Shown here in pieces: positions 39,019-59,847 of a stretch of DNA of 64,000 nt (position 1 is its first letter; every line of letters starts with the position of its first letter). The position numbers and the translations under genes were made by a program. Origin of the DNA: Escherichia phage vB_EcoM_G8; the sequence record NC_054915.1. The stretch is one strand, 5' to 3'. Below the pieces are notes generated by a model that worked only from the letters and a program-made list of their open reading frames with translations, ran no database searches and was not told the DNA's origin.

Positions 39019-39828
39019 ATGCTTAAAGAACAACTGATTGCTGAAGCGCAGAAAATTGATGCTTCCGTTGCTCTTGATAGTATTTTCGAATCAGTTAATA
39101 TTTCTCCGGAAGCAAAAGAAACTTTCGGCACTGTATTCGAAGCTACCGTCAAGCAGCACGCCGTTAAATTAGCTGAATCTCATATCGCTAAAATTGCTGA
39201 AAAAGCAGAAGAAGAAGTAGAAAAAAATAAAGAAGAAGCAGAAGAAAAAGCTGAGAAGAAAATCGCTGAGCAAGCTTCTAAATTCCTTGACCATCTTGCA
39301 AAAGAATGGCTCACTGAAAATAAATTAGCAGTAGATAAAGGCATCAAAGCCGAACTGTTTGAATCCATGCTTGGTGGATTGAAAGAGCTCTTCGTTGAAC
39401 ACAACGTTGTTGTTCCAGAAGAATCAGTTGATGTTGTAGCTGAAATGGAAGAAGAACTGCAAGAACATAAAGAAGAATCAGCTCGTCTGTTCGAAGAACT
39501 CAATAAGCGTGACGCATATATCAATTATGTGCAGCGTGAAGTGGCATTGAGCGAAAGTACTAAAGATCTGACTGAGTCTCAAAAAGAAAAAGTCTCTGCT
39601 CTGGTCGAAGGTATGGATTATTCAGATGCATTCTCAAGTAAATTGAGTGCAATCGTAGAAATGGTGAAGAAATCTAATAAAGATGAAAGCACTATTACTG
39701 AGAGTATAAATACTCCTGATACTGAAGCAGCCGGACTAAATTTCGTCACTGAAGCTGTAGAAGATAAAGCTGCACAGGGTGCAGAAGATATTGTAAGTGT
39801 ATATGCGAAAGTCGCATCTCGTTTCTAA
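39019..39828 (+). CDS. 22: prohead core scaffold protein gp22
   Basis: 269 aa, highly charged coiled-coil; size and order. Confidence 0.9.
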   Translation: MLKEQLIAEAQKIDASVALDSIFESVNISPEAKETFGTVFEATVKQHAVKLAESHIAKIAEKAEEEVEKNKEEAEEKAEKKIAEQASKFLDHLAKEWLTENKLAVDKGIKAELFESMLGGLKELFVEHNVVVPEESVDVVAEMEEELQEHKEESARLFEELNKRDAYINYVQREVALSESTKDLTESQKEKVSALVEGMDYSDAFSSKLSAIVEMVKKSNKDESTITESINTPDTEAAGLNFVTEAVEDKAAQGAEDIVSVYAKVASRF

Positions 39829-46269: not shown

Positions 46270-47781
46270 ATGACTGACATTAAAGTACATTTTTATGATT
46301 TTAGTCACGTGAGAATTGATTGTGAAGAAAGTACATTTCATGAACTCCGTGATTTCTTTAGCTTTGAAGCTGATGGGTATCGTTTTAATCCGAAGTACAG
46401 ATATGGCCACTGGGATGGACGAATCCGTCTTTTAGATTATAATCGACTTCTTCCATTCGGCTTAGTCGGGCAAATTAAAAAGTTCTGTGATAACTTTGGC
46501 TATAAAGCCTGGATTGACCCACAAATTAACGAAAAAGAAGAATTATCAAGAAAAGATTTTGATGAATGGCTTTCTAAATTAGAAATCTATTCAGGAAATA
46601 AAAGAATTGAACCACATTGGTATCAAAAAGATGCAGTGTTCGAAGGATTAGTTAATCGTCGTAGAATTCTTAATCTTCCAACATCCGCTGGTAAATCGTT
46701 AATTCAAGCTTTGCTTGCGCGATATTATTTGGAAAATTATGAAGGTAAAATTCTTATCATTGTTCCAACAACTGCTCTGACAACTCAGATGGCTGATGAC
46801 TTCGTCGACTATCGTTTATTCAGCCATGCAATGATAAAGAAAATTGGTGGCGGAGCATCAAAAGATGATAAATATAAAAATGATGCACCAGTCGTTGTTG
46901 GTACATGGCAAACTGTAGTAAAACAACCGAAAGAATGGTTCTCACAGTTTGGAATGATGATGAATGATGAATGCCATCTTGCTACAGGAAAAAGTATTTC
47001 ATCTATCATATCAGGTTTAAATAACTGCATGTTCAAATTCGGTTTGTCTGGTTCATTACGTGATGGCAAAGCCAATATCATGCAGTATGTTGGAATGTTT
47101 GGTGAAATATTTAAGCCAGTAACGACTTCTAAGTTAATGGAAGATGGACAAGTAACTGAGCTAAAAATTAATAGTATTTTTCTTCGCTATCCCGATGAGT
47201 TCACTACTAAATTAAAGGGAAAAACTTATCAAGAAGAAATAAAAATTATTACTGGGCTTAGTAAAAGAAATAAATGGATCGCTAAATTAGCTATTAAGCT
47301 TGCACAAAAAGATGAAAACGCTTTTGTCATGTTTAAACATGTATCGCATGGTAAAGCTATTTTCGATTTAATTAAAAATGAATACGATAAAGTTTATTAC
47401 GTATCAGGGGAAGTTGATACCGAAACCCGCAACGTAATGAAAACTTTAGCTGAAAACGGTAAAGGAATAATTATAGTAGCGAGTTATGGTGTATTTTCTA
47501 CTGGTATTTCAGTTAAAAATCTGCATCACGTTGTTTTAGCGCATGGTGTTAAATCAAAAATCATTGTATTACAAACAATCGGTCGTGTATTACGTAAGCA
47601 TGGTTCTAAGACAATAGCAACGGTCTGGGACCTCATAGATGACGCGGGCGTAGTTTCTAAATCAAAAACATCTTCTAAAAAATACTCGCATTTAAACTAT
47701 CTTTTAAAACATGGACTTGATCGTATTCAGCGTTATGCTGATGAAAAGTTTAATTATGTGATGAAAGAGGTTAAACTTTGA
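46270..47781 (+). CDS. uvsW: ATP-dependent DNA helicase UvsW (SF2)
   Basis: 503 aa; Walker A PTSAGKS; DECH box MMMNDECHLA. Confidence 0.92.
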   Translation: MTDIKVHFYDFSHVRIDCEESTFHELRDFFSFEADGYRFNPKYRYGHWDGRIRLLDYNRLLPFGLVGQIKKFCDNFGYKAWIDPQINEKEELSRKDFDEWLSKLEIYSGNKRIEPHWYQKDAVFEGLVNRRRILNLPTSAGKSLIQALLARYYLENYEGKILIIVPTTALTTQMADDFVDYRLFSHAMIKKIGGGASKDDKYKNDAPVVVGTWQTVVKQPKEWFSQFGMMMNDECHLATGKSISSIISGLNNCMFKFGLSGSLRDGKANIMQYVGMFGEIFKPVTTSKLMEDGQVTELKINSIFLRYPDEFTTKLKGKTYQEEIKIITGLSKRNKWIAKLAIKLAQKDENAFVMFKHVSHGKAIFDLIKNEYDKVYYVSGEVDTETRNVMKTLAENGKGIIIVASYGVFSTGISVKNLHHVVLAHGVKSKIIVLQTIGRVLRKHGSKTIATVWDLIDDAGVVSKSKTSSKKYSHLNYLLKHGLDRIQRYADEKFNYVMKEVKL

Positions 47782-48470
47782 ATTATAAATTAATATATGA
47801 TAATTTAATTAATAGAGCCCAGAATCGGGCTCGCCTTAATGGATACACTGAAACACATCATATAATTCCTAGATGTATGGGTGGTACAAATGATAAGTGT
47901 AATTTAGTAGAACTAACGGCTGAAGAACATTTTATAGCCCATAAACTTTTAGCTAAAATTCATCCAAACCATTACGGTATAATTAAAGCTGTTATATGTA
48001 TGGGGATGAATTCAAATACTCATGAAAGACACGTCAATAAATCTTACGCATGGGAACGTCGTAAAATGGCAGAACTTCAATCCGGCGAAGGTAATCCATT
48101 TTACGGAAAACACCATACGGAAGAACATAAACAATATATGTCAAAACTCATGAAAAGTCGTCCAATTACATGGGGAAATAAAATTAGTAAAACTAAAAGA
48201 ATGAACCCAACGAAATGGACTGAAGAAGCTAAAAGATTACATTCAATCAATCAATCGGGTAAAAATAACGGCATGTATGGAAGGAAACATTCCGCTAAAT
48301 CTATTCAGAAAATTAAAGATAACATGCCAGATAATTCAGGAGCTAATAACCCAGCTGCTAAACCTATAGAAGTAAATGGTGTTAAGTATAAATGTATGAA
48401 AGATGCTTCTAAAGCTACTGGATTATCAATGTACAAACTAAGAATACTTAGAAAAACAGTCAATTTATAA
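47778..48470 (+). CDS. HNH homing endonuclease with NUMOD repeats, TTG start
   Basis: 230 aa; HNH core ETHHIIPRCMGGTNDKCNLVELTAEEHFIAH; two NUMOD3-like repeats (GEGNPFYGKHHTEEHK, GKNNGMYGRKHSAKS); AAAGAGG RBS 8 nt before a TTG that overlaps the uvsW stop. Confidence 0.8.
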   Translation: MNYKLIYDNLINRAQNRARLNGYTETHHIIPRCMGGTNDKCNLVELTAEEHFIAHKLLAKIHPNHYGIIKAVICMGMNSNTHERHVNKSYAWERRKMAELQSGEGNPFYGKHHTEEHKQYMSKLMKSRPITWGNKISKTKRMNPTKWTEEAKRLHSINQSGKNNGMYGRKHSAKSIQKIKDNMPDNSGANNPAAKPIEVNGVKYKCMKDASKATGLSMYKLRILRKTVNL

Positions 48471-50758: not shown

Positions 50759-51508
50759 ATGGCAAACATTATTCGTTGTAAATTACCAGATGGTGTTCAT
50801 CGTTTTAAACCATTTACGGTAGAAGATTATCGAGATTTTTTGTTAGTTCGAAACGATATAGAACATCGGTCACCACAAGAACAAAAAGAAATAATTACTG
50901 ATTTAATTGATGATTATTTTGGAGACTATCCGAAGACTTGGCAACCATTTATATTTTTGCAGGTATTTGTAGGGTCAATAGGTAAAACTAAAGTACCGGT
51001 CACATTTGTATGTCCAAAATGTAAAAAAGAAAAGACAGTTCCATTTGAAATATATCAAAAAGAATTAAAGGAACCTGTTTTTGATGTAGCTAATGTTAAA
51101 ATTAAATTAAAGTTTCCTTCTGAGTTTTATGAAAATAAAGCAAAGATGATTACTGAAAATATTCATTCTGTTCAAGTAGATGAAACTTGGTATGATTGGA
51201 AGGAAATTAGCGAATCAAGTCAAATAGAACTCGTTGACGCCATCGAGATAGAAACATTAGAACAAATTCTCGATGCAATGAATCCTATTAATTTAACTCT
51301 ACATATGTCATGCTGTAATAAGTACATTAAAAAATACACTGATATAGTAGACGTGTTTAAGCTATTAGTTAACCCAGATGAGATATTTACTTTTTATCAA
51401 ATTAATCACACACTCGTAAAAAGTAATTATAGCTTAAATTCAATAATGAAAATGATTCCTGCTGAGCGCGGATTCGTATTAAAACTGATTGAGAAGGATA
51501 AACAATAA
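50759..51508 (+). CDS. 51: baseplate hub assembly protein gp51
   Basis: 249 aa; size and order. Confidence 0.88.
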
Positions 51509-52683
51509 TGAGTATGTTGCAACGCCCCGGATATCCAAATCTCAGCGTTAAATTATTTGATAGCTACGACGCTTGGAGTAATAATAGATTTGTTGAATTA
51601 GCTGCTACTATTACCACATTAACTATGCGGGATTCTCTTTATGGCCGAAATGAAGGAATGCTGCAGTTTTATGATTCTAAAAACATCCATACAAAAATGG
51701 ATGGAAATGAAATAATTCAGATTTCTGTAGCTAATGCAAATGATATTAATAATGTTAAAACACGAATTTATGGATGTAAGCATTTTTCCGTGTCAGTAGA
51801 TTCAAAAGGCGATAACATCATTGCTATTGAATTGGGAACTATTCATTCTATAGAAAATCTTAAATTTGGTAGACCATTTTTCCCTGATGCAGGTGAATCT
51901 ATAAAAGAAATGCTTGGTGTCATTTATCAGGATCGCACATTATTAACTCCAGCGATAAATGCTATAAATGCTTATGTTCCTGATATTCCATGGACTAGCA
52001 CATTTGAAAACTATTTGTCATATGTAAGAGAAGTTGGTCTAGCTGTAGGAAGTGACAAATTTGTATTTGTGTGGCAAGACATCATGGGAGTTAACATGAT
52101 GGACTATGATATGATGATAAATCAAGAACCATATCCAATGATTGTCGGTGAGCCATCTTTAATAGGTCAATTCATCCAAGAATTAAAATACCCATTAGCA
52201 TATGATTTCGTTTGGTTGACTAAATCGAATCCTCACAAACGTGACCCAATGAAAAATGCTACTATCTATGCGCATTCATTTTTAGATTCTTCATTACCAA
52301 TGATTACTACAGGAAAGGGTGAAAACTCTATTGTAGTGTCAAGGTCAGGTGCTTATTCTGAAATGACTTATAGGAATGGATATGAAGAAGCTATTCGTCT
52401 TCAAACTATGGCACAATATGACGGTTATGCTAAATGTTCTACTGTCGGTAATTTTAACTTGACTCCTGGTGTTAAAATTATTTTTAATGATAGTAAAAAT
52501 CAATTTAAAACCGAATTTTACGTTGATGAAGTCATCCATGAATTATCCAATAATAATTCAGTAACTCATCTATATATGTTCACTAATGCAACGAAACTGG
52601 AAACAATAGACCCAGTTAAGGTTAAAAATGAATTTAAATCTGATACTACCACTGAAGAAAGTAGTTCTTCCAATAAGCAATAA
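51508..52683 (+). CDS. 27: baseplate hub protein gp27
   Basis: 391 aa; size and order. Confidence 0.9.
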
Positions 52684-53216
52684 AGAAGTTTCTATTCCTA
52701 AAATGGGTCTTAAACACTATAACATTTTAAAAGATGTTAAAGGTCCTGATGAAAATTTAAAACTTCTTATTGATTCTATTTGTCCGAATTTATCACCGGC
52801 AGAAGTTGATTTCGTTTCTATTCATTTATTGGAATTTAATGGAAAGATTAAATCTCGTAAAGAAATAGATGGCTATACTTATGACATTAATGATGTTTAT
52901 GTATGCCAAAGATTAGAATTTCAATGGCTATACTTATGACATTAATGATGTTTATGTATGCCAAAGATTAGAATTTCAATACCAAGGAAACACATTTTAT
53001 TTTAGACCTCCTGGAAAATTTGAACAATTTTTAACGGTGAGCGATATGTTATCTAAATGCTTACTTAAGGTCAATGATGAAGTTAAAGAAATTAATTTTC
53101 TTGAGATGCCAGCATTCGTTTTAAAATGGGCAAATGATATTTTTACAACTTTAGCAATTCCTGGCCCTAATGGTCCAATAACTGGAATTGGCAATATTAT
53201 TGGATTATTTGAATGA
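52628..53216 (+). pseudogene. 28: baseplate hub distal subunit gene 28, disrupted by a 55-bp tandem duplication
   Basis: N-terminal frame stops at TGA 52937-52939 after 103 codons, inside the second repeat copy; the remaining 78 codons are intact in the +1 frame and end at TGA 53214-53216 overlapping the gene 29 ATG. Confidence 0.85.
52871..52980 (+). repeat. perfect tandem direct duplication, 2 x 55 bp
   Basis: Unit GGCTATACTTATGACATTAATGATGTTTATGTATGCCAAAGATTAGAATTTCAAT at 52871-52925 and again at 52926-52980, 55/55 identical. Confidence 0.9.
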
Positions 53217-54985
53217 AAAAGCCACAAGAAATGCAAACGATGCGTAGAAAAGTTATTTCAGATAATAAACCAACACAGGAAGCGGCTAAATCCGCTTCCA
53301 ACACTTTATCTGGACTTAACGATATATCTACGAAATTGGATGATGCTCAAGCTGCTTCTGAATTAATTGCTCAAACTGTCGAAGAAAAATCGAATGAAAT
53401 AATTGGAGCAATTGACAATGTAGAAAGCGCAGTGAGTGATACTACTGCCGGTTCTGAGTTAATTGCTGAAACTGTCGAAATTGGCAACAATATTAATAAA
53501 GAAATCGGTGAATCACTCGGGAGCAAATTAGATAAATTAACAAGTTTACTAGAGCAAAAAATTCAGACAGCTGGAATTCAACAGACGGGAACTAGTTTAG
53601 CCACGGTTGAAAGCGCTATTCCTGTTAAAGTCGTTGAGGATGATACTGCCGAATCTGTGGGTCCTTTATTACCAGCTCCTGAAGCAGTTAATAATGATCC
53701 TGACGCTGATTTTTTCCCTACCCCTCAACCAGTTGAACCCAAACAAGAATCACCAGAAGAAAAACAGAAAAAAGAAGCATTTAACTTAAAATTATCACAA
53801 GCTTTAGATAAATTAACAAAGACAGTTGATTTTGGATTTAAGAAATCCATTTCAATTACTGATAAAATATCAAGCATGCTATTTAAGTACACCGTCAGTG
53901 CTGCTATTGAAGCCGCTAAAATGACTGCAATGATATTGGCTGTTGTTGTTGGAATAGATCTGTTGATGGTTCATTTTAAATACTGGTCAGATAAATTTTC
54001 AAAAGCCTGGGATTTATTTAATACTGACTTTACTAAATTCTCTAGCGAAACCGGAACGTGGGGTCCTTTATTACAGAGCATCTTTGGTTCTATTGATAAA
54101 ATTAAGAAGCTGTGGGAAGCTGGAGACTGGGGCGGATTGACAACAGCTATTGTCGAAGGACTTGGAAAGGTTCTTTTTAATTTAGGAGAGCTTATTCAAC
54201 TTGGAATGGCTAAATTATCTGCGGCAATTCTTCGAGTTATTCCTGGTATGAAGGATACTGCTGATGAAGTAGAAGGAAGAGCACTAGAAAATTTCCAAAA
54301 TACTACAAATGCTTCTCTTAGCAAAGAAGACCAAGAAAAAGTTGCAAATTATCAATATAAAAGAATGAATGGCGATCTTGGTCCAATAGCAAAAGGGCTA
54401 GACAAAATTGCGAACTGGAAAACTCGTGCATCTAACTGGATTCGTGGTGTTGATAATAAAGAAGCACTAACGACTGATGAAGAGAGAGCAGAGGAAGAAG
54501 AAAAATTAAAGCAACTTTCTCCGGAGGAAGCTAAAATTGCTTTAATGAAAGCTAATGAAGCTCGTGCTGCTATGAATCGTTTTGATGAATACGCTAATTC
54601 AGCTGATATGAGTAAAGACTCAACGGTTAAATCAGTTGAAGCTGCTTATGAAGATCTTAAAAAACGGATGGATGACCCGGATTTAAATAATTCACCGGCA
54701 GTTAAAAAAGAACTTGCTGCTAGATTTTCTAAAATTGATGCTACTTATCAAGAGCTCAAGAAAAATCAGCCTAATGCCAAACCTCAAACTTCTGCTAAAT
54801 CGCCAGAAGCGAAACAGGTCCAGGTTATTGAAAAGAACAAAGCACAGCAAGCTCCTGTTCAGCAAGCATCTCCTTCAATCAATAATACTAATAATGTTAT
54901 TAAGAAAAATACTGTCGTTCATAATATGACACCTGTCACAAGCACAACTGCTCCTGGTGTATTTGATGCGACTGGAGTTAATTAA
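53213..54985 (+). CDS. 29: tail tube length determinator (tape measure) gp29
   Basis: 590 aa; Ala/Glu-rich helical; size and order. Confidence 0.9.
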   Translation: MKKPQEMQTMRRKVISDNKPTQEAAKSASNTLSGLNDISTKLDDAQAASELIAQTVEEKSNEIIGAIDNVESAVSDTTAGSELIAETVEIGNNINKEIGESLGSKLDKLTSLLEQKIQTAGIQQTGTSLATVESAIPVKVVEDDTAESVGPLLPAPEAVNNDPDADFFPTPQPVEPKQESPEEKQKKEAFNLKLSQALDKLTKTVDFGFKKSISITDKISSMLFKYTVSAAIEAAKMTAMILAVVVGIDLLMVHFKYWSDKFSKAWDLFNTDFTKFSSETGTWGPLLQSIFGSIDKIKKLWEAGDWGGLTTAIVEGLGKVLFNLGELIQLGMAKLSAAILRVIPGMKDTADEVEGRALENFQNTTNASLSKEDQEKVANYQYKRMNGDLGPIAKGLDKIANWKTRASNWIRGVDNKEALTTDEERAEEEEKLKQLSPEEAKIALMKANEARAAMNRFDEYANSADMSKDSTVKSVEAAYEDLKKRMDDPDLNNSPAVKKELAARFSKIDATYQELKKNQPNAKPQTSAKSPEAKQVQVIEKNKAQQAPVQQASPSINNTNNVIKKNTVVHNMTPVTSTTAPGVFDATGVN

Positions 54986-54993
54986 GGAATAAT

Positions 54994-56088
54994 ATGGCAA
55001 TTGTTAAAGAAATAACTACTGATTTAATTAAAAAGTCCGGTGAGAAAATTTCAGCCGGACAGAGCACTAAATCAGAAGTAGTAACTAAAACATACACTGC
55101 CCAGTTTCCAACTGGGCGTGCTAGTGGTAATGACACTACAGGGGACTTCCAGGTAACAGATCTGTATAAGAATGGATTATTATTTACTGCATACAATATG
55201 TCATCTAGGGATTCTGGAAGTCTTAGATCGATGAGATCTAACTACTCTTCTTCATCTTCGAGTATTTTAAGTACAGCTAGAAACACTATTAGTAGTACAG
55301 TATCAAAACTATCAAATGGATTAATATCAAATAATAATTCAGGAACAATAAGTAAAGCTCCTGTCGCAAACATTCTTTTACCGAGATCTAAATCTGATGT
55401 TGACACATCATCACATAGATTTAATGATGTTCAAGAAAGCCTTATTAGTAGAGGCGGAGGTACTGCTACTGGTGTGCTAAGTAATATTGCTTCAACCGCA
55501 GTATTTGGGGCACTGGAAAGTATAACACAAGGTATAATGGCTGATAATAATGAGCAGATTTATACGACAGCCAGAAGTATGTACGGTGGCGCTGAAAATA
55601 GAACTAAAGTGTTTACATGGGATTTGACTCCACGTTCAACAGAAGATTTAATGGCTATTATTAATATCTATCAATATTTTAACTATTTTTCTTATGGTGA
55701 AACAGGTAAATCTCAATACGCTGCTGAAATAAAGGGGTATTTAGATGATTGGTATCGTTCTACGTTAATTGAACCTTTATCTCCGGAAGACGCAGCTAAA
55801 AATAAAACACTATTTGAGAAAATGACAGCAAGTTTAACGAACGTTCTTGTAGTTTCAAACCCGACAGTTTGGATGGTGAAAAACTTTGGTGCAACATCTA
55901 AGTTTGATGGAAAAACGGAAATATTTGGTCCATGCCAAATACAGAGCATTAGATTTGATAAAACACCTAATGGTAACTTTAACGGATTAGCTATTGCTCC
56001 AAACCTCCCTAGTACATTTACTCTCGAGATTACTATGAGAGAAATTATCACGTTAAACCGTGCTTCTTTATATGCGGGGACTTTTTAA
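54994..56088 (+). CDS. 48: baseplate tail tube cap protein gp48
   Basis: 364 aa; size and order. Confidence 0.88.
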   Translation: MAIVKEITTDLIKKSGEKISAGQSTKSEVVTKTYTAQFPTGRASGNDTTGDFQVTDLYKNGLLFTAYNMSSRDSGSLRSMRSNYSSSSSSILSTARNTISSTVSKLSNGLISNNNSGTISKAPVANILLPRSKSDVDTSSHRFNDVQESLISRGGGTATGVLSNIASTAVFGALESITQGIMADNNEQIYTTARSMYGGAENRTKVFTWDLTPRSTEDLMAIINIYQYFNYFSYGETGKSQYAAEIKGYLDDWYRSTLIEPLSPEDAAKNKTLFEKMTASLTNVLVVSNPTVWMVKNFGATSKFDGKTEIFGPCQIQSIRFDKTPNGNFNGLAIAPNLPSTFTLEITMREIITLNRASLYAGTF

Positions 56089-57011
56089 TGTATTCTTTAG
56101 AGGAATTTAATAATCAAGCAATAAACGCAGATTTCCAACGTAATAATATGTTTAGCTGCGTTTTTGCAACAACTCCATCAACTAAAAGCTCTTCGTTGAT
56201 AAGTTCAATTAGCAACTTTTCTTATAATAACTTGGGCCTAAATTCAAATTGGTTAGGATTAACTCAAGGTGATATTAATCAGGGAATTACCACGCTAATT
56301 ACAGCTGGCACACAAAAACTAATAAGAAAATCAGGAGTCAGTAAATATCTTATTGGTGCCATGAGTCAACGTACTGTCCAGAGTTTATTAGGATCATTTA
56401 CAGTCGGTACATATTTAATCGATTTCTTTAATATGGCGTATAATTCATCTGGATTGATGATATATTCTGTAAAAATGCCAGAGAATAGATTATCCTATGA
56501 AACTGACTGGAACTATAATTCTCCTAATATTCGTATAACTGGGAGAGAATTAGACCCTTTGGTTATTTCATTTAGAATGGATTCAGAAGCTTGTAACTAT
56601 CGTGCAATGCAAGACTGGGTTAACTCCGTTCAAGACCCAGTAACTGGACTACGTGCTTTGCCGCAAGATGTCGAGGCAGATATTCAGGTTAATCTTCATT
56701 CTCGTAATGGATTGCCTCATACTGCGGTGATGTTCACCGGATGCATTCCAATATCAGTGAGCGCTCCTGAGTTATCATATGATGGAGATAACCAAATAAC
56801 TACATTTGATGTTACTTTTGCGTATAGAGTGATGCAGGCTGGAGCAGTTGATAGGCAAGCTGCGCTTGAATGGCTTGAATCTGCTGCTATAAATGGTATT
56901 CAAAGCGTTCTCGGAAATAGTGGAGGTGTTACTGGACTATCTAATTCGCTTTCACGACTCAGTAGACTAGGAGGAACCTCAGGAAGCATTTCAAATATTA
57001 GTATACTATGA
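56088..57011 (+). CDS. 54: baseplate tail tube initiator gp54
   Basis: 307 aa; position after gene 48. Confidence 0.85.
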   Translation: MYSLEEFNNQAINADFQRNNMFSCVFATTPSTKSSSLISSISNFSYNNLGLNSNWLGLTQGDINQGITTLITAGTQKLIRKSGVSKYLIGAMSQRTVQSLLGSFTVGTYLIDFFNMAYNSSGLMIYSVKMPENRLSYETDWNYNSPNIRITGRELDPLVISFRMDSEACNYRAMQDWVNSVQDPVTGLRALPQDVEADIQVNLHSRNGLPHTAVMFTGCIPISVSAPELSYDGDNQITTFDVTFAYRVMQAGAVDRQAALEWLESAAINGIQSVLGNSGGVTGLSNSLSRLSRLGGTSGSISNISIL

Positions 57012-57406: not shown

Positions 57407-57610
57407 CTATAACACAACACGAGGGACTTGTAAACTACATTTTGAACTTTTTAGTACGCGTAATAGGCATGCGTCGATTTTATACTGTTTCATTGTTTGA
57501 AGAGCAGTATCAAAAACAGCATTAATGACACCAATTGGATTTCCACCCAAGTTTTTAAGCTTAACTAATGATAGTTTCTCATTAACACCTATCATTACGA
57601 TATGCATCAT
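57407..57610 (-). CDS. Alt N-terminal-region paralog, part 2 (alt.-2-like)
   Basis: 67 aa; MMHIV...INAVFDTALQTMKQYKIDACLLRVLKS aligns with Alt residues about 63-120. Confidence 0.6.
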   Translation of the reverse strand: MMHIVMIGVNEKLSLVKLKNLGGNPIGVINAVFDTALQTMKQYKIDACLLRVLKSSKCSLQVPRVVL

Positions 57611-57792
57611 TTTATCGCCCGGCTTAACGTTTTATTCGTATCACCGCCAGAGGTGTATGTACAAAATCTAAATCCAGGAAGCACGCTTTCTTCGCCGGCT
57701 TGAATAGCAAAAATTTGTGGTATTTTATGCTTAGGATTTAAGTTAACAGCCGGCGCCGAAGCGCCGTCAAATAATTCTGTAATAAGTTCCAT
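57607..57792 (-). CDS. Alt N-terminal-region paralog, part 1 (alt.-1-like)
   Basis: 61 aa; MELITELFD...NLNPKHKIPQIF...PGFRFCTYTSGGDTN aligns with Alt residues 2-55; 4-nt ATGA overlap with the next ORF. Confidence 0.6.
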   Translation of the reverse strand: MELITELFDGASAPAVNLNPKHKIPQIFAIQAGEESVLPGFRFCTYTSGGDTNKTLSRAIK

Positions 57793-57795
57793 GAT

Positions 57796-59847
57796 TTATC
57801 CTTGAACGAACTTGTAAGGCATGTTTGCAATATCTATGCAAGACGCAATAATTCCAAGAGATGATTCTACTTTCTGTTTAACATTTGATGAAACAAATGA
57901 TGCAAAGTCAACTCTATCTTCTATATCACCTGTCATTGTAACCAATTCACCAGTTTCCATTAAACGGTCACCGTCATAAATTACCGATTCGGTGAGTTCT
58001 TCTGTGGTCATAACTTCAGCTTGAATAAGCTTGTTGTTAGTTCTAACTGTTCCATCGTTGTAAGATGCATCGGTTATTTTATTAACTTTGACCATTAATC
58101 CACGTGGCAAAATGACTTCCATTTCATTTGAAGGCGCTAAACTTCCACCGGGTAAAACAACATTGACCTTATCAGCCCCAGTAATAACCCATCCAATTCC
58201 AACTAAATTATCACTAGAATTTACAAGTCCTTCATCAGTTTTATCAATAGAAACACTTAAACGCTTTTCGTCTGGTAAAACACCCACAGATGAATCAGTC
58301 ATCCAAGTACCAAAAATATTTGGATATAATGATGTTGACACAAAGTTTCTAAAATAAAAAACTCGATTTTTTACCATTGCTTCATATATTGAAGGTAACA
58401 TTCGTTGTGAACGATACAAAGTAATACCTTTTGGTAATCGTTCACCATTTTTAAAGGCTGAATCTAAATTATCAATGGCTTGTTCTATTTCAGGTGCTGT
58501 TAAAATACTTGTACGCTCATCTGGATTATATAATCCCAAAAGAGCATTATTCATGTCTACATATCCTGAACCTACATATTCACGAATTCCGCGTTTTTGC
58601 GCTGGTGTGTATTTAGATGAATCTTTATTTTCGACTATAGGATGTAATGACCATCCAGCGGTAAGAGCATATCCACGTAATTCTCTTCGAATAATCTTTG
58701 TTTTTATTGCATTCCAAGAATTTTGTACTAACTCATTTGCAGCATCTTGGTTTAAATGCGAATGTCTGTTAATATTTCTTTCAAACCAAGCACCTTTATA
58801 TTTTTCTAAAGTATCATCAACTATAGAAGCAATAGTTTCTAAAGTTTTTATTGAAGTAATAGATTCTTTTCGTAATCTTTCTAAAGCTTTATTTTTTATT
58901 TCTGCATTAATAATGGATTCTTTATCTTCAGGAATTATAGAAGCTTCTCTGAATGCCATTCCAGCTGTAACACTACTAAGAGCATTCTCTAATGCAAATC
59001 CTGAAGTAGAAATAACAGTTAATTCATTAGCGTCAGAAATTAAAGGAGCGTCCGCTGGTTTATTTAATTCTGCCGCTGAAGCCTCAAATTTTTGAAACAT
59101 CGGTGTTTCAAATCTAGAAGATTCCAATGACTGACTTTGTGCAATTGCTCTACGGGAAATTTTAACTTTAACGATTACAGCTTGGTCAGAACGTTTATCA
59201 TTTTCTTGTGCAATAGATGCTGCAATTGCCTCATTTTTAGTTACTTGAGCTCCAGTATCTTTATTGATATAAACATCACCGACCTTCGATTCAACTTTAG
59301 TAAAGAGCTCGGTACTAATTTCCGGAACCCCTGGAATGTCTTCTAGTGATACATTTTTGCGATGTATAAGAATATATGCATACTTTTTATCATAATCCCA
59401 GAGTTCCTTAAGAAGGACGTATCTGCCACCTGAACGACTACGGATAAGTCTATCAGCAATAACTTGAATTTGTCGAGCTTGACCGGCGGTTTTAGACTTA
59501 AGAATACGAAGCATACAAGCATCAATTTTATACTGACGCATTGTTTGCATTGCAACAGTAAAAACCGAATTGATATAATTAATTGGGCTTGGACCAAGAC
59601 CTTTCAATTTAGCAATTGAACCTTTAGCGGTTAATGTAAAAGGAACAATATGCATCATTTTATCGCCCATCTTTAAATCACGATTAGTATCACCTCCAGA
59701 TGTATAGGTACATAAACGAAAGCCTGGTTGTTCAATTGCGTCATCAACATGAACTGAAAAAATTTGCGGTATTTTCTTCTTTGGATTTAAGTTTGTAATC
59801 GGAAGAGTAGTATCTTCGTCAAATAATTCTGTAATTAGTTCCATCAT
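57796..59847 (-). CDS. alt: ADP-ribosyltransferase Alt (packaged and injected)
   Basis: 683 aa; size and position between gene 54 and gene 30; N-terminus MMELITELFDEDTTLPITNLNPKKKIPQIF. Confidence 0.85.
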   Translation of the reverse strand: MMELITELFDEDTTLPITNLNPKKKIPQIFSVHVDDAIEQPGFRLCTYTSGGDTNRDLKMGDKMMHIVPFTLTAKGSIAKLKGLGPSPINYINSVFTVAMQTMRQYKIDACMLRILKSKTAGQARQIQVIADRLIRSRSGGRYVLLKELWDYDKKYAYILIHRKNVSLEDIPGVPEISTELFTKVESKVGDVYINKDTGAQVTKNEAIAASIAQENDKRSDQAVIVKVKISRRAIAQSQSLESSRFETPMFQKFEASAAELNKPADAPLISDANELTVISTSGFALENALSSVTAGMAFREASIIPEDKESIINAEIKNKALERLRKESITSIKTLETIASIVDDTLEKYKGAWFERNINRHSHLNQDAANELVQNSWNAIKTKIIRRELRGYALTAGWSLHPIVENKDSSKYTPAQKRGIREYVGSGYVDMNNALLGLYNPDERTSILTAPEIEQAIDNLDSAFKNGERLPKGITLYRSQRMLPSIYEAMVKNRVFYFRNFVSTSLYPNIFGTWMTDSSVGVLPDEKRLSVSIDKTDEGLVNSSDNLVGIGWVITGADKVNVVLPGGSLAPSNEMEVILPRGLMVKVNKITDASYNDGTVRTNNKLIQAEVMTTEELTESVIYDGDRLMETGELVTMTGDIEDRVDFASFVSSNVKQKVESSLGIIASCIDIANMPYKFVQG

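Follow-up and report, generated by a model that had tools for sequence, protein, structure and literature searches.

Gene 28 and its neighbours

The window, by which we mean the whole 64-kb stretch of DNA analysed, covers the late-gene region of a T4-like phage (Tequatrovirus), and the ORF that is broken in it is gene 28. The gene order is 27-28-29, and the phage records that match the 651 nt around the repeat described below annotate baseplate hub genes 27, 28, and 29 at these positions (Table 1). Gene 28 starts with an ATG 56 nt inside gene 27, an overlap geometry that is alike in ten related loci; at the other end, the ATG of gene 29 overlaps the gene 28 stop codon (ATGA). The other large late genes in the window (genes 5-24, hoc, inh, uvsW, uvsY, 25, 26, 51, 27, 29, 48, alt, and 30 were compared) are ORFs of the size expected from their T4 counterparts.

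Table 1. Genes and repeat copies at the gene 28 locus (positions in the window)
Feature	Position	Strand	Basis
Gene 27, baseplate hub, 391 aa, intact	51508..52683	+	ORF list; Pfam PF09097/PF09096 on identical product
Gene 28 as written: gp28 residues 1-99, then 4 out-of-frame codons (WLYL) and TGA	52628..52939	+	ORF list
Copy 1 of the 55-nt unit	52869..52923	+	TRF period 55, 100% identity; exact string check
Copy 2 of the 55-nt unit, with AT as 2 further matching bases	52924..52980	+	TRF and exact string check
+1-frame remainder of gene 28 (residues 82-177)	52926..53216	+	Translation, ORF list, codon listing
Gene 29, tape measure/hub, 590 aa, intact	53213..54985	+	ORF list, related loci

Because the 55-nt repeat shifts the reading frame of gene 28, translation in the zero frame stops after 103 codons, at the TGA at 52937-52939. 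The +1 frame that carries the tail of the gene opens only past a TAG at 52914-52916 and closes at the TGA at 53214-53216. Both stops had been described in an earlier note on this DNA, which held that the gene 28 ORF runs into the TGA after 103 codons and that its remainder is intact in the +1 frame, with a stop overlapping the gene 29 ATG; the ORF list and the translation agree with it on each point. The note had further expected that removing one copy would leave a single ORF of about 176 codons. Removal in silico did give a single gene 28 ORF, but its length is 177 codons. The 103-aa shortened product was not on record as an exact protein.

In classical T4 genetics (Epstein 1963; Kikuchi and King 1975), gene 28 is reportedly conditional-lethal. 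A search of the open-access literature for evidence that gene 28 is essential found none, and we take the gene to be essential on the basis of this classical genetics, its universal conservation, and its role in the hub. Gene 28 is part of the hub assembly pathway, and it is uncertain where gp28 sits in the mature hub (PMC3004832). The sequence as written is without an intact copy of this hub gene, which is conserved in every relative, and the frameshift should be lethal.

The 55-nt repeat

TRF reported a repeat at 52869..52980 with a period of 55, 2.0 copies, 100% matches, 0 indels, and a score of 224, and a scripted string comparison found positions 52871-52925 to be the same as 52926-52980 letter for letter, which bears out the claim of the earlier note that identical head-to-tail copies of a 55-nt unit lie here. 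The period-55 identity spans 57 positions (52869-52925 versus 52924-52980), the surplus beyond the unit being the dinucleotide AT; the register of the repeat is ambiguous by 2 nt, and 52871-52925 is an equally valid choice of copy 1. The copies directly adjoin each other with no spacer between them, and the novel sequence at the junction consists of AGATTAGAATTTCAA at the end of copy 1 followed by TGGCTATACTTATGAC at the beginning of copy 2; the longer string across the junction is AGATTAGAATTTCAATGGCTATACTTATGAC.

The window contains the 31-nt junction just once, and 100 shuffles of its sequence never produced it, so that the duplication is not due to chance. For periods of 20-300 nt, no other perfect tandem duplication was present in the 64 kb scanned of a ~168-kb genome, and 132 kb of related loci contained none at all. 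At the window's base composition, at least 2 extra matching bases are expected at the repeat edges with a probability of 0.18; the AT microhomology was considered as a discriminator between explanations and was dropped because 2 extra bases arise by chance 18% of the time.

An imperfect, GAA-rich tandem repeat with a 24-nt unit was also seen at 39199-39260 on the + strand (2.9 copies, 67% matches). It sits in a 269-aa ORF at 39019-39828, presumably gene 22, which encodes the scaffold protein, and is probably an ordinary acidic low-complexity coding repeat.

A single copy in related phages

The 651 nt around the repeat matched 498 phage records at 95-99.4% identity. In each of the 40 best of these and of 59 more, sampled evenly by rank from the 498, the 651-nt query corresponds to 596 nt, as expected of a single copy; the second 55-nt copy was thus found in none of the ~100 inspected Tequatrovirus records among the 498 that match the region. 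Likewise, when an 80-nt query across the junction was run against phage records, 15 of 15 among the matches listed aligned as two overlapping pieces with a span of 57 nt, i.e., as a single copy. In IMG/VR, JGI metagenome contigs, and GTDB genome contigs, exact searches found neither the junction 31-mer nor a strain-specific 70-mer from gene 29, and a search for other carriers of the junction gave none in E. coli complete genomes or plasmids.

The best phage record had only ~96.9% identity over 24 kb. Ten comparison contigs (from NCBI, ENA, and Logan) were picked by their exactly identical gp27 (391 aa). All ten have a single, unbroken gene 28 between genes 27 and 29, assigned to Pfam family PF11110; its product is called as 177 aa in eight of them and, from a later start, as 152 aa in the other two. 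The restored 177-aa gp28 is identical at 177/177 residues to the gp28 of every one of these relatives, and the restored gene matches theirs at 525-529 of 534 nt. Only with one copy removed does the gene between 27 and 29 fit PF11110 (Phage_hub_GP28), a hit that was precomputed on the identical products of the relatives. Since the relatives have no second copy and the other late genes are normal, the disruption is unique to this sequence. It is also clean, and the sequence downstream of it has not decayed.

Other differences from the related loci

Several other features set the window apart from some or all of the ten related loci. The centre of gene 29 (54074-54685, + strand) has a dense cluster of private substitutions, and the exact 590-aa gp29 had no entry in a collection of 15 billion proteins. 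The gene 54 ORF (baseplate-tail tube junction; 56088-57011, + strand) encodes 307 aa here and 321 aa in nine of the ten; the 307-aa form is shared with one Logan contig (L010) and may be a natural C-terminal variant or a start/stop difference. Directly after uvsW there is a 230-aa ORF (47778-48470, + strand). The same position holds a 230-aa product with a NUMOD3 domain, likely a homing endonuclease, in one related locus (L001) and is empty in the other nine; in another (L005), an ORF of 205 aa whose product faintly matches SegE GIY-YIG lies in front of uvsW. This looks like typical mobile-endonuclease mosaicism. Lastly, 1275 nt inside alt, the ADP-ribosyltransferase gene (57425-58699, - strand), have no 31-mer in common with any of the ten related loci, and the genes flanking this stretch are ~98-99% identical to theirs; the stretch is a locally divergent or recombinant allele.

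Origin of the second copy

The second 55-nt copy is probably an artefact of assembly or curation, most likely an assembler overlap of 55 bases that was left untrimmed. A clue to this reading is the length of the repeat. SPAdes has default k values of 21, 33, 55, 77, 99, and 127, and the largest that it uses by default is 55 for reads of ~150 nt or less, as it is in metaSPAdes; the repeat length is therefore a SPAdes default k value, a match that the earlier note overlooked. T4-like genomes are circularly permuted, and because of this a de Bruijn graph assembler returns such a genome as a cycle. SPAdes builds its final graph at the largest k, and on writing the cycle as a linear contig makes the last k bases equal to the first k bases. 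Were the contig then rotated to a conventional start with the overlap untrimmed, the two copies would come to stand head to tail inside the genome. Pasting two graph-adjacent contigs end to end would lead to the same outcome, and so would a window that was read from the end of such a contig on into its start. The site of the duplicate would be the arbitrary point at which the assembler cut the circle, in this case inside gene 28. That the record passed through a SPAdes pipeline with k = 55 we infer solely from the length of the repeat.

Supporting this reading, a default-parameter SPAdes 3.12 assembly of the T4-like phage 132 yielded a contig whose ends overlapped by 55 bp; the authors trimmed one end and only then re-opened the sequence to align it with T4 (PMC8483715). 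The same procedure minus the trimming step would yield a perfect 55-nt head-to-tail duplication at an arbitrary cut point. Relatedly, the Unicycler preprint states that SPAdes makes overlapping sequence at contig ends and that circular replicons get a slight start/end overlap from it, which needs manual repair. The repeat has three features to be expected of such an overlap: 100% identity with no spacer, a k-sized length, and restoration of the relatives' sequence on deletion. A fourth, single occurrence, holds within the 64-kb window, and the position of the repeat cuts through a conserved ORF. Three explanations had been listed in the earlier note with none chosen, namely a spontaneous duplication, an assembly or consensus artefact, and a recoding event; the artefact, much the best supported of the three, gains from the match of 55 nt to a SPAdes k and from the overlap documented in phage 132, and recoding loses from the lack of signals for it.

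We consider it unlikely that the sequenced DNA carried a real and very recent spontaneous tandem duplication, produced by replication slippage or by illegitimate recombination between two AT dinucleotides, that knocked out gene 28. Frameshift mutations of T4 classically include small tandem duplications, and the unit is flanked by the 2-nt AT microhomology that slipped mispairing would leave, but a microhomology of this size is within chance expectation (P = 0.18). With two identical copies and no decay in the ORF downstream, any real duplication must be very recent. As a defective variant, it could have persisted by complementation at high multiplicity or have been sampled from a mixed lysate, and it would in time be lost through recombination or selection. 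A lethal allele should not, however, end up as the consensus of a plaque-purified stock. The duplication was also in no other T4-like record or contig inspected, and a chance coincidence would be needed for its length to equal a default assembler k-mer.

Recoding or splitting of gene 28

A duplication that is real could in principle be tolerated by recoding that yields functional gp28. Ribosomes might hop 55 nt from a codon to its identical partner, pass over the TGA from one TTA to another, or shift by +1 at TTA-TGA. For the first route, each codon of copy 1 does have an identical partner 55 nt downstream, and such a hop would restore the wild-type protein. The codon listing shows no zero-frame stop in copy 1, however, so there is nothing to trigger it. 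For the second, the TTA at 52934-52936 is followed by the TGA and has an in-frame TTA counterpart 31 nt away at 52968-52970. This is the only stop-adjacent pair, and a hop between the two would insert 7 residues (predicted peptide ...EFQWLYLEFQYQG, against the wild-type ...RLEFQ/YQGNTF across this site). The third would insert 18 residues and give a 195-aa product (predicted peptide ...EFQWLYLDINDVY), and the stretch in which a rescue could take place is just 7 codons long, from the TAG at 52914-52916 to the TGA at 52937.

The local sequence offers little to promote any of these events. In the context UAC UUA UGA C, a +1 shift moves UUA to UAU, which allows no re-pairing, and this is not an RF2-type CUU-UGA-C slippery site. 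None of the Shine-Dalgarno-like motifs AGGA, GGAG, GAGG, GGGG, and GGTG was present in 52880-52984; prfB-type +1 frameshifting combines a slippery codon with a Shine-Dalgarno-like stimulator, and the site has no such combination. The predicted RNA fold of 52916-52995 (-13.3 kcal/mol, z = -1.64) is unremarkable and contains no significant stem-loop of the gene 60 type, as a fold equally good or better was seen in 11 of 200 shuffles. Finally, the extra 55 nt are conserved in no relative inspected. We thus concur with the earlier note, which saw none of the bypass signals of gene 60: a take-off stop for the wild-type-restoring hop, a significant stem-loop, and a conserved gap were each absent. 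That recoding makes functional gp28 across the duplication is accordingly very improbable, and we give just as little credence to the specific case of a viable phage whose DNA does contain the 55-nt duplication and that makes gp28 by a gene 60-like hop or a frameshift with no canonical signals.

It is equally far-fetched that the duplication is real and gene 28 is split into a 103-aa N-terminal product and a separately initiated C-terminal one: the C-terminal frame does have a GTG at 53037, its first possible start, and then an ATG at 53046, with a weak GGTG just upstream, but the first start falls past residue 136, so that neither product would contain ~37 residues (100-136) that are 100% conserved in the ten relatives, and gene 28 is split in 0 of the 10 related loci.

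Consequences for the record

Returning to the reading that we favour, an untrimmed assembler overlap, we class the 55-nt duplication as not a real biological feature, and gene 28 of the phage itself is almost certainly normal. The consequences are practical rather than biological: one 55-nt copy has to come out of the record. As long as it stays, annotation will make gene 28 a pseudogene or break it into two fragments, and the length given for the genome will be off by 55 nt. In general, perfect tandem repeats exactly as long as an assembler k (55, 77, 99, or 127) are a recognizable signature, and scans of genomes should screen out such k-length repeats before a mutation or a recoding site is called. 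Should reads show the duplication to be real in a viable phage, it would be a noteworthy example of a hub gene that is recoded or whose disruption is tolerated.

Comparison with known systems

The likeness to the translational bypass of T4 gene 60 is superficial, consisting in matching codons that flank a non-translated stretch of ~50 nt. Unlike gene 60, the present locus has no take-off stop for the hop that would restore the wild-type protein, no significant stem-loop, and no conserved gap.

Spontaneous duplications in the T4 rII and e genes are another parallel: these too are head to tail, with a length that is not a multiple of 3, microhomology at the edges, and an early stop. On the other hand, those mutations were isolated in genes that are not essential or where conditions were permissive, whereas the duplication here affects a gene required for plaque formation, is part of a consensus genome, and matches an assembler parameter in length.

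Among artefacts, a published parallel inside phage genomes comes from przondoviruses, in which internal repeats of ~79 bp were found in Shovill/SPAdes short-read assemblies of 7 of 10 phages and, by Sanger sequencing, proved to be artefacts in most (PMC10438801). As here, these are short, perfect repeats of assembler-k size inside phage genomes, whether draft or deposited; they had no read-depth support and caused annotation errors (PMC10438801). They differ in phage group and in length (79 versus 55), and they lie near true terminal repeats, which przondoviruses have, unlike T4-like phages, whose genomes have no fixed ends.

The closest match overall is the terminal k-mer overlap of SPAdes contigs. 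There the copies are at the two ends of a contig and here they are adjacent inside the genome, so that an additional step of rotation or joining would have to be supposed; in perfect identity, in a length of 55 nt, in single occurrence (within the 64-kb window), and in a position unrelated to gene boundaries, the two are alike.
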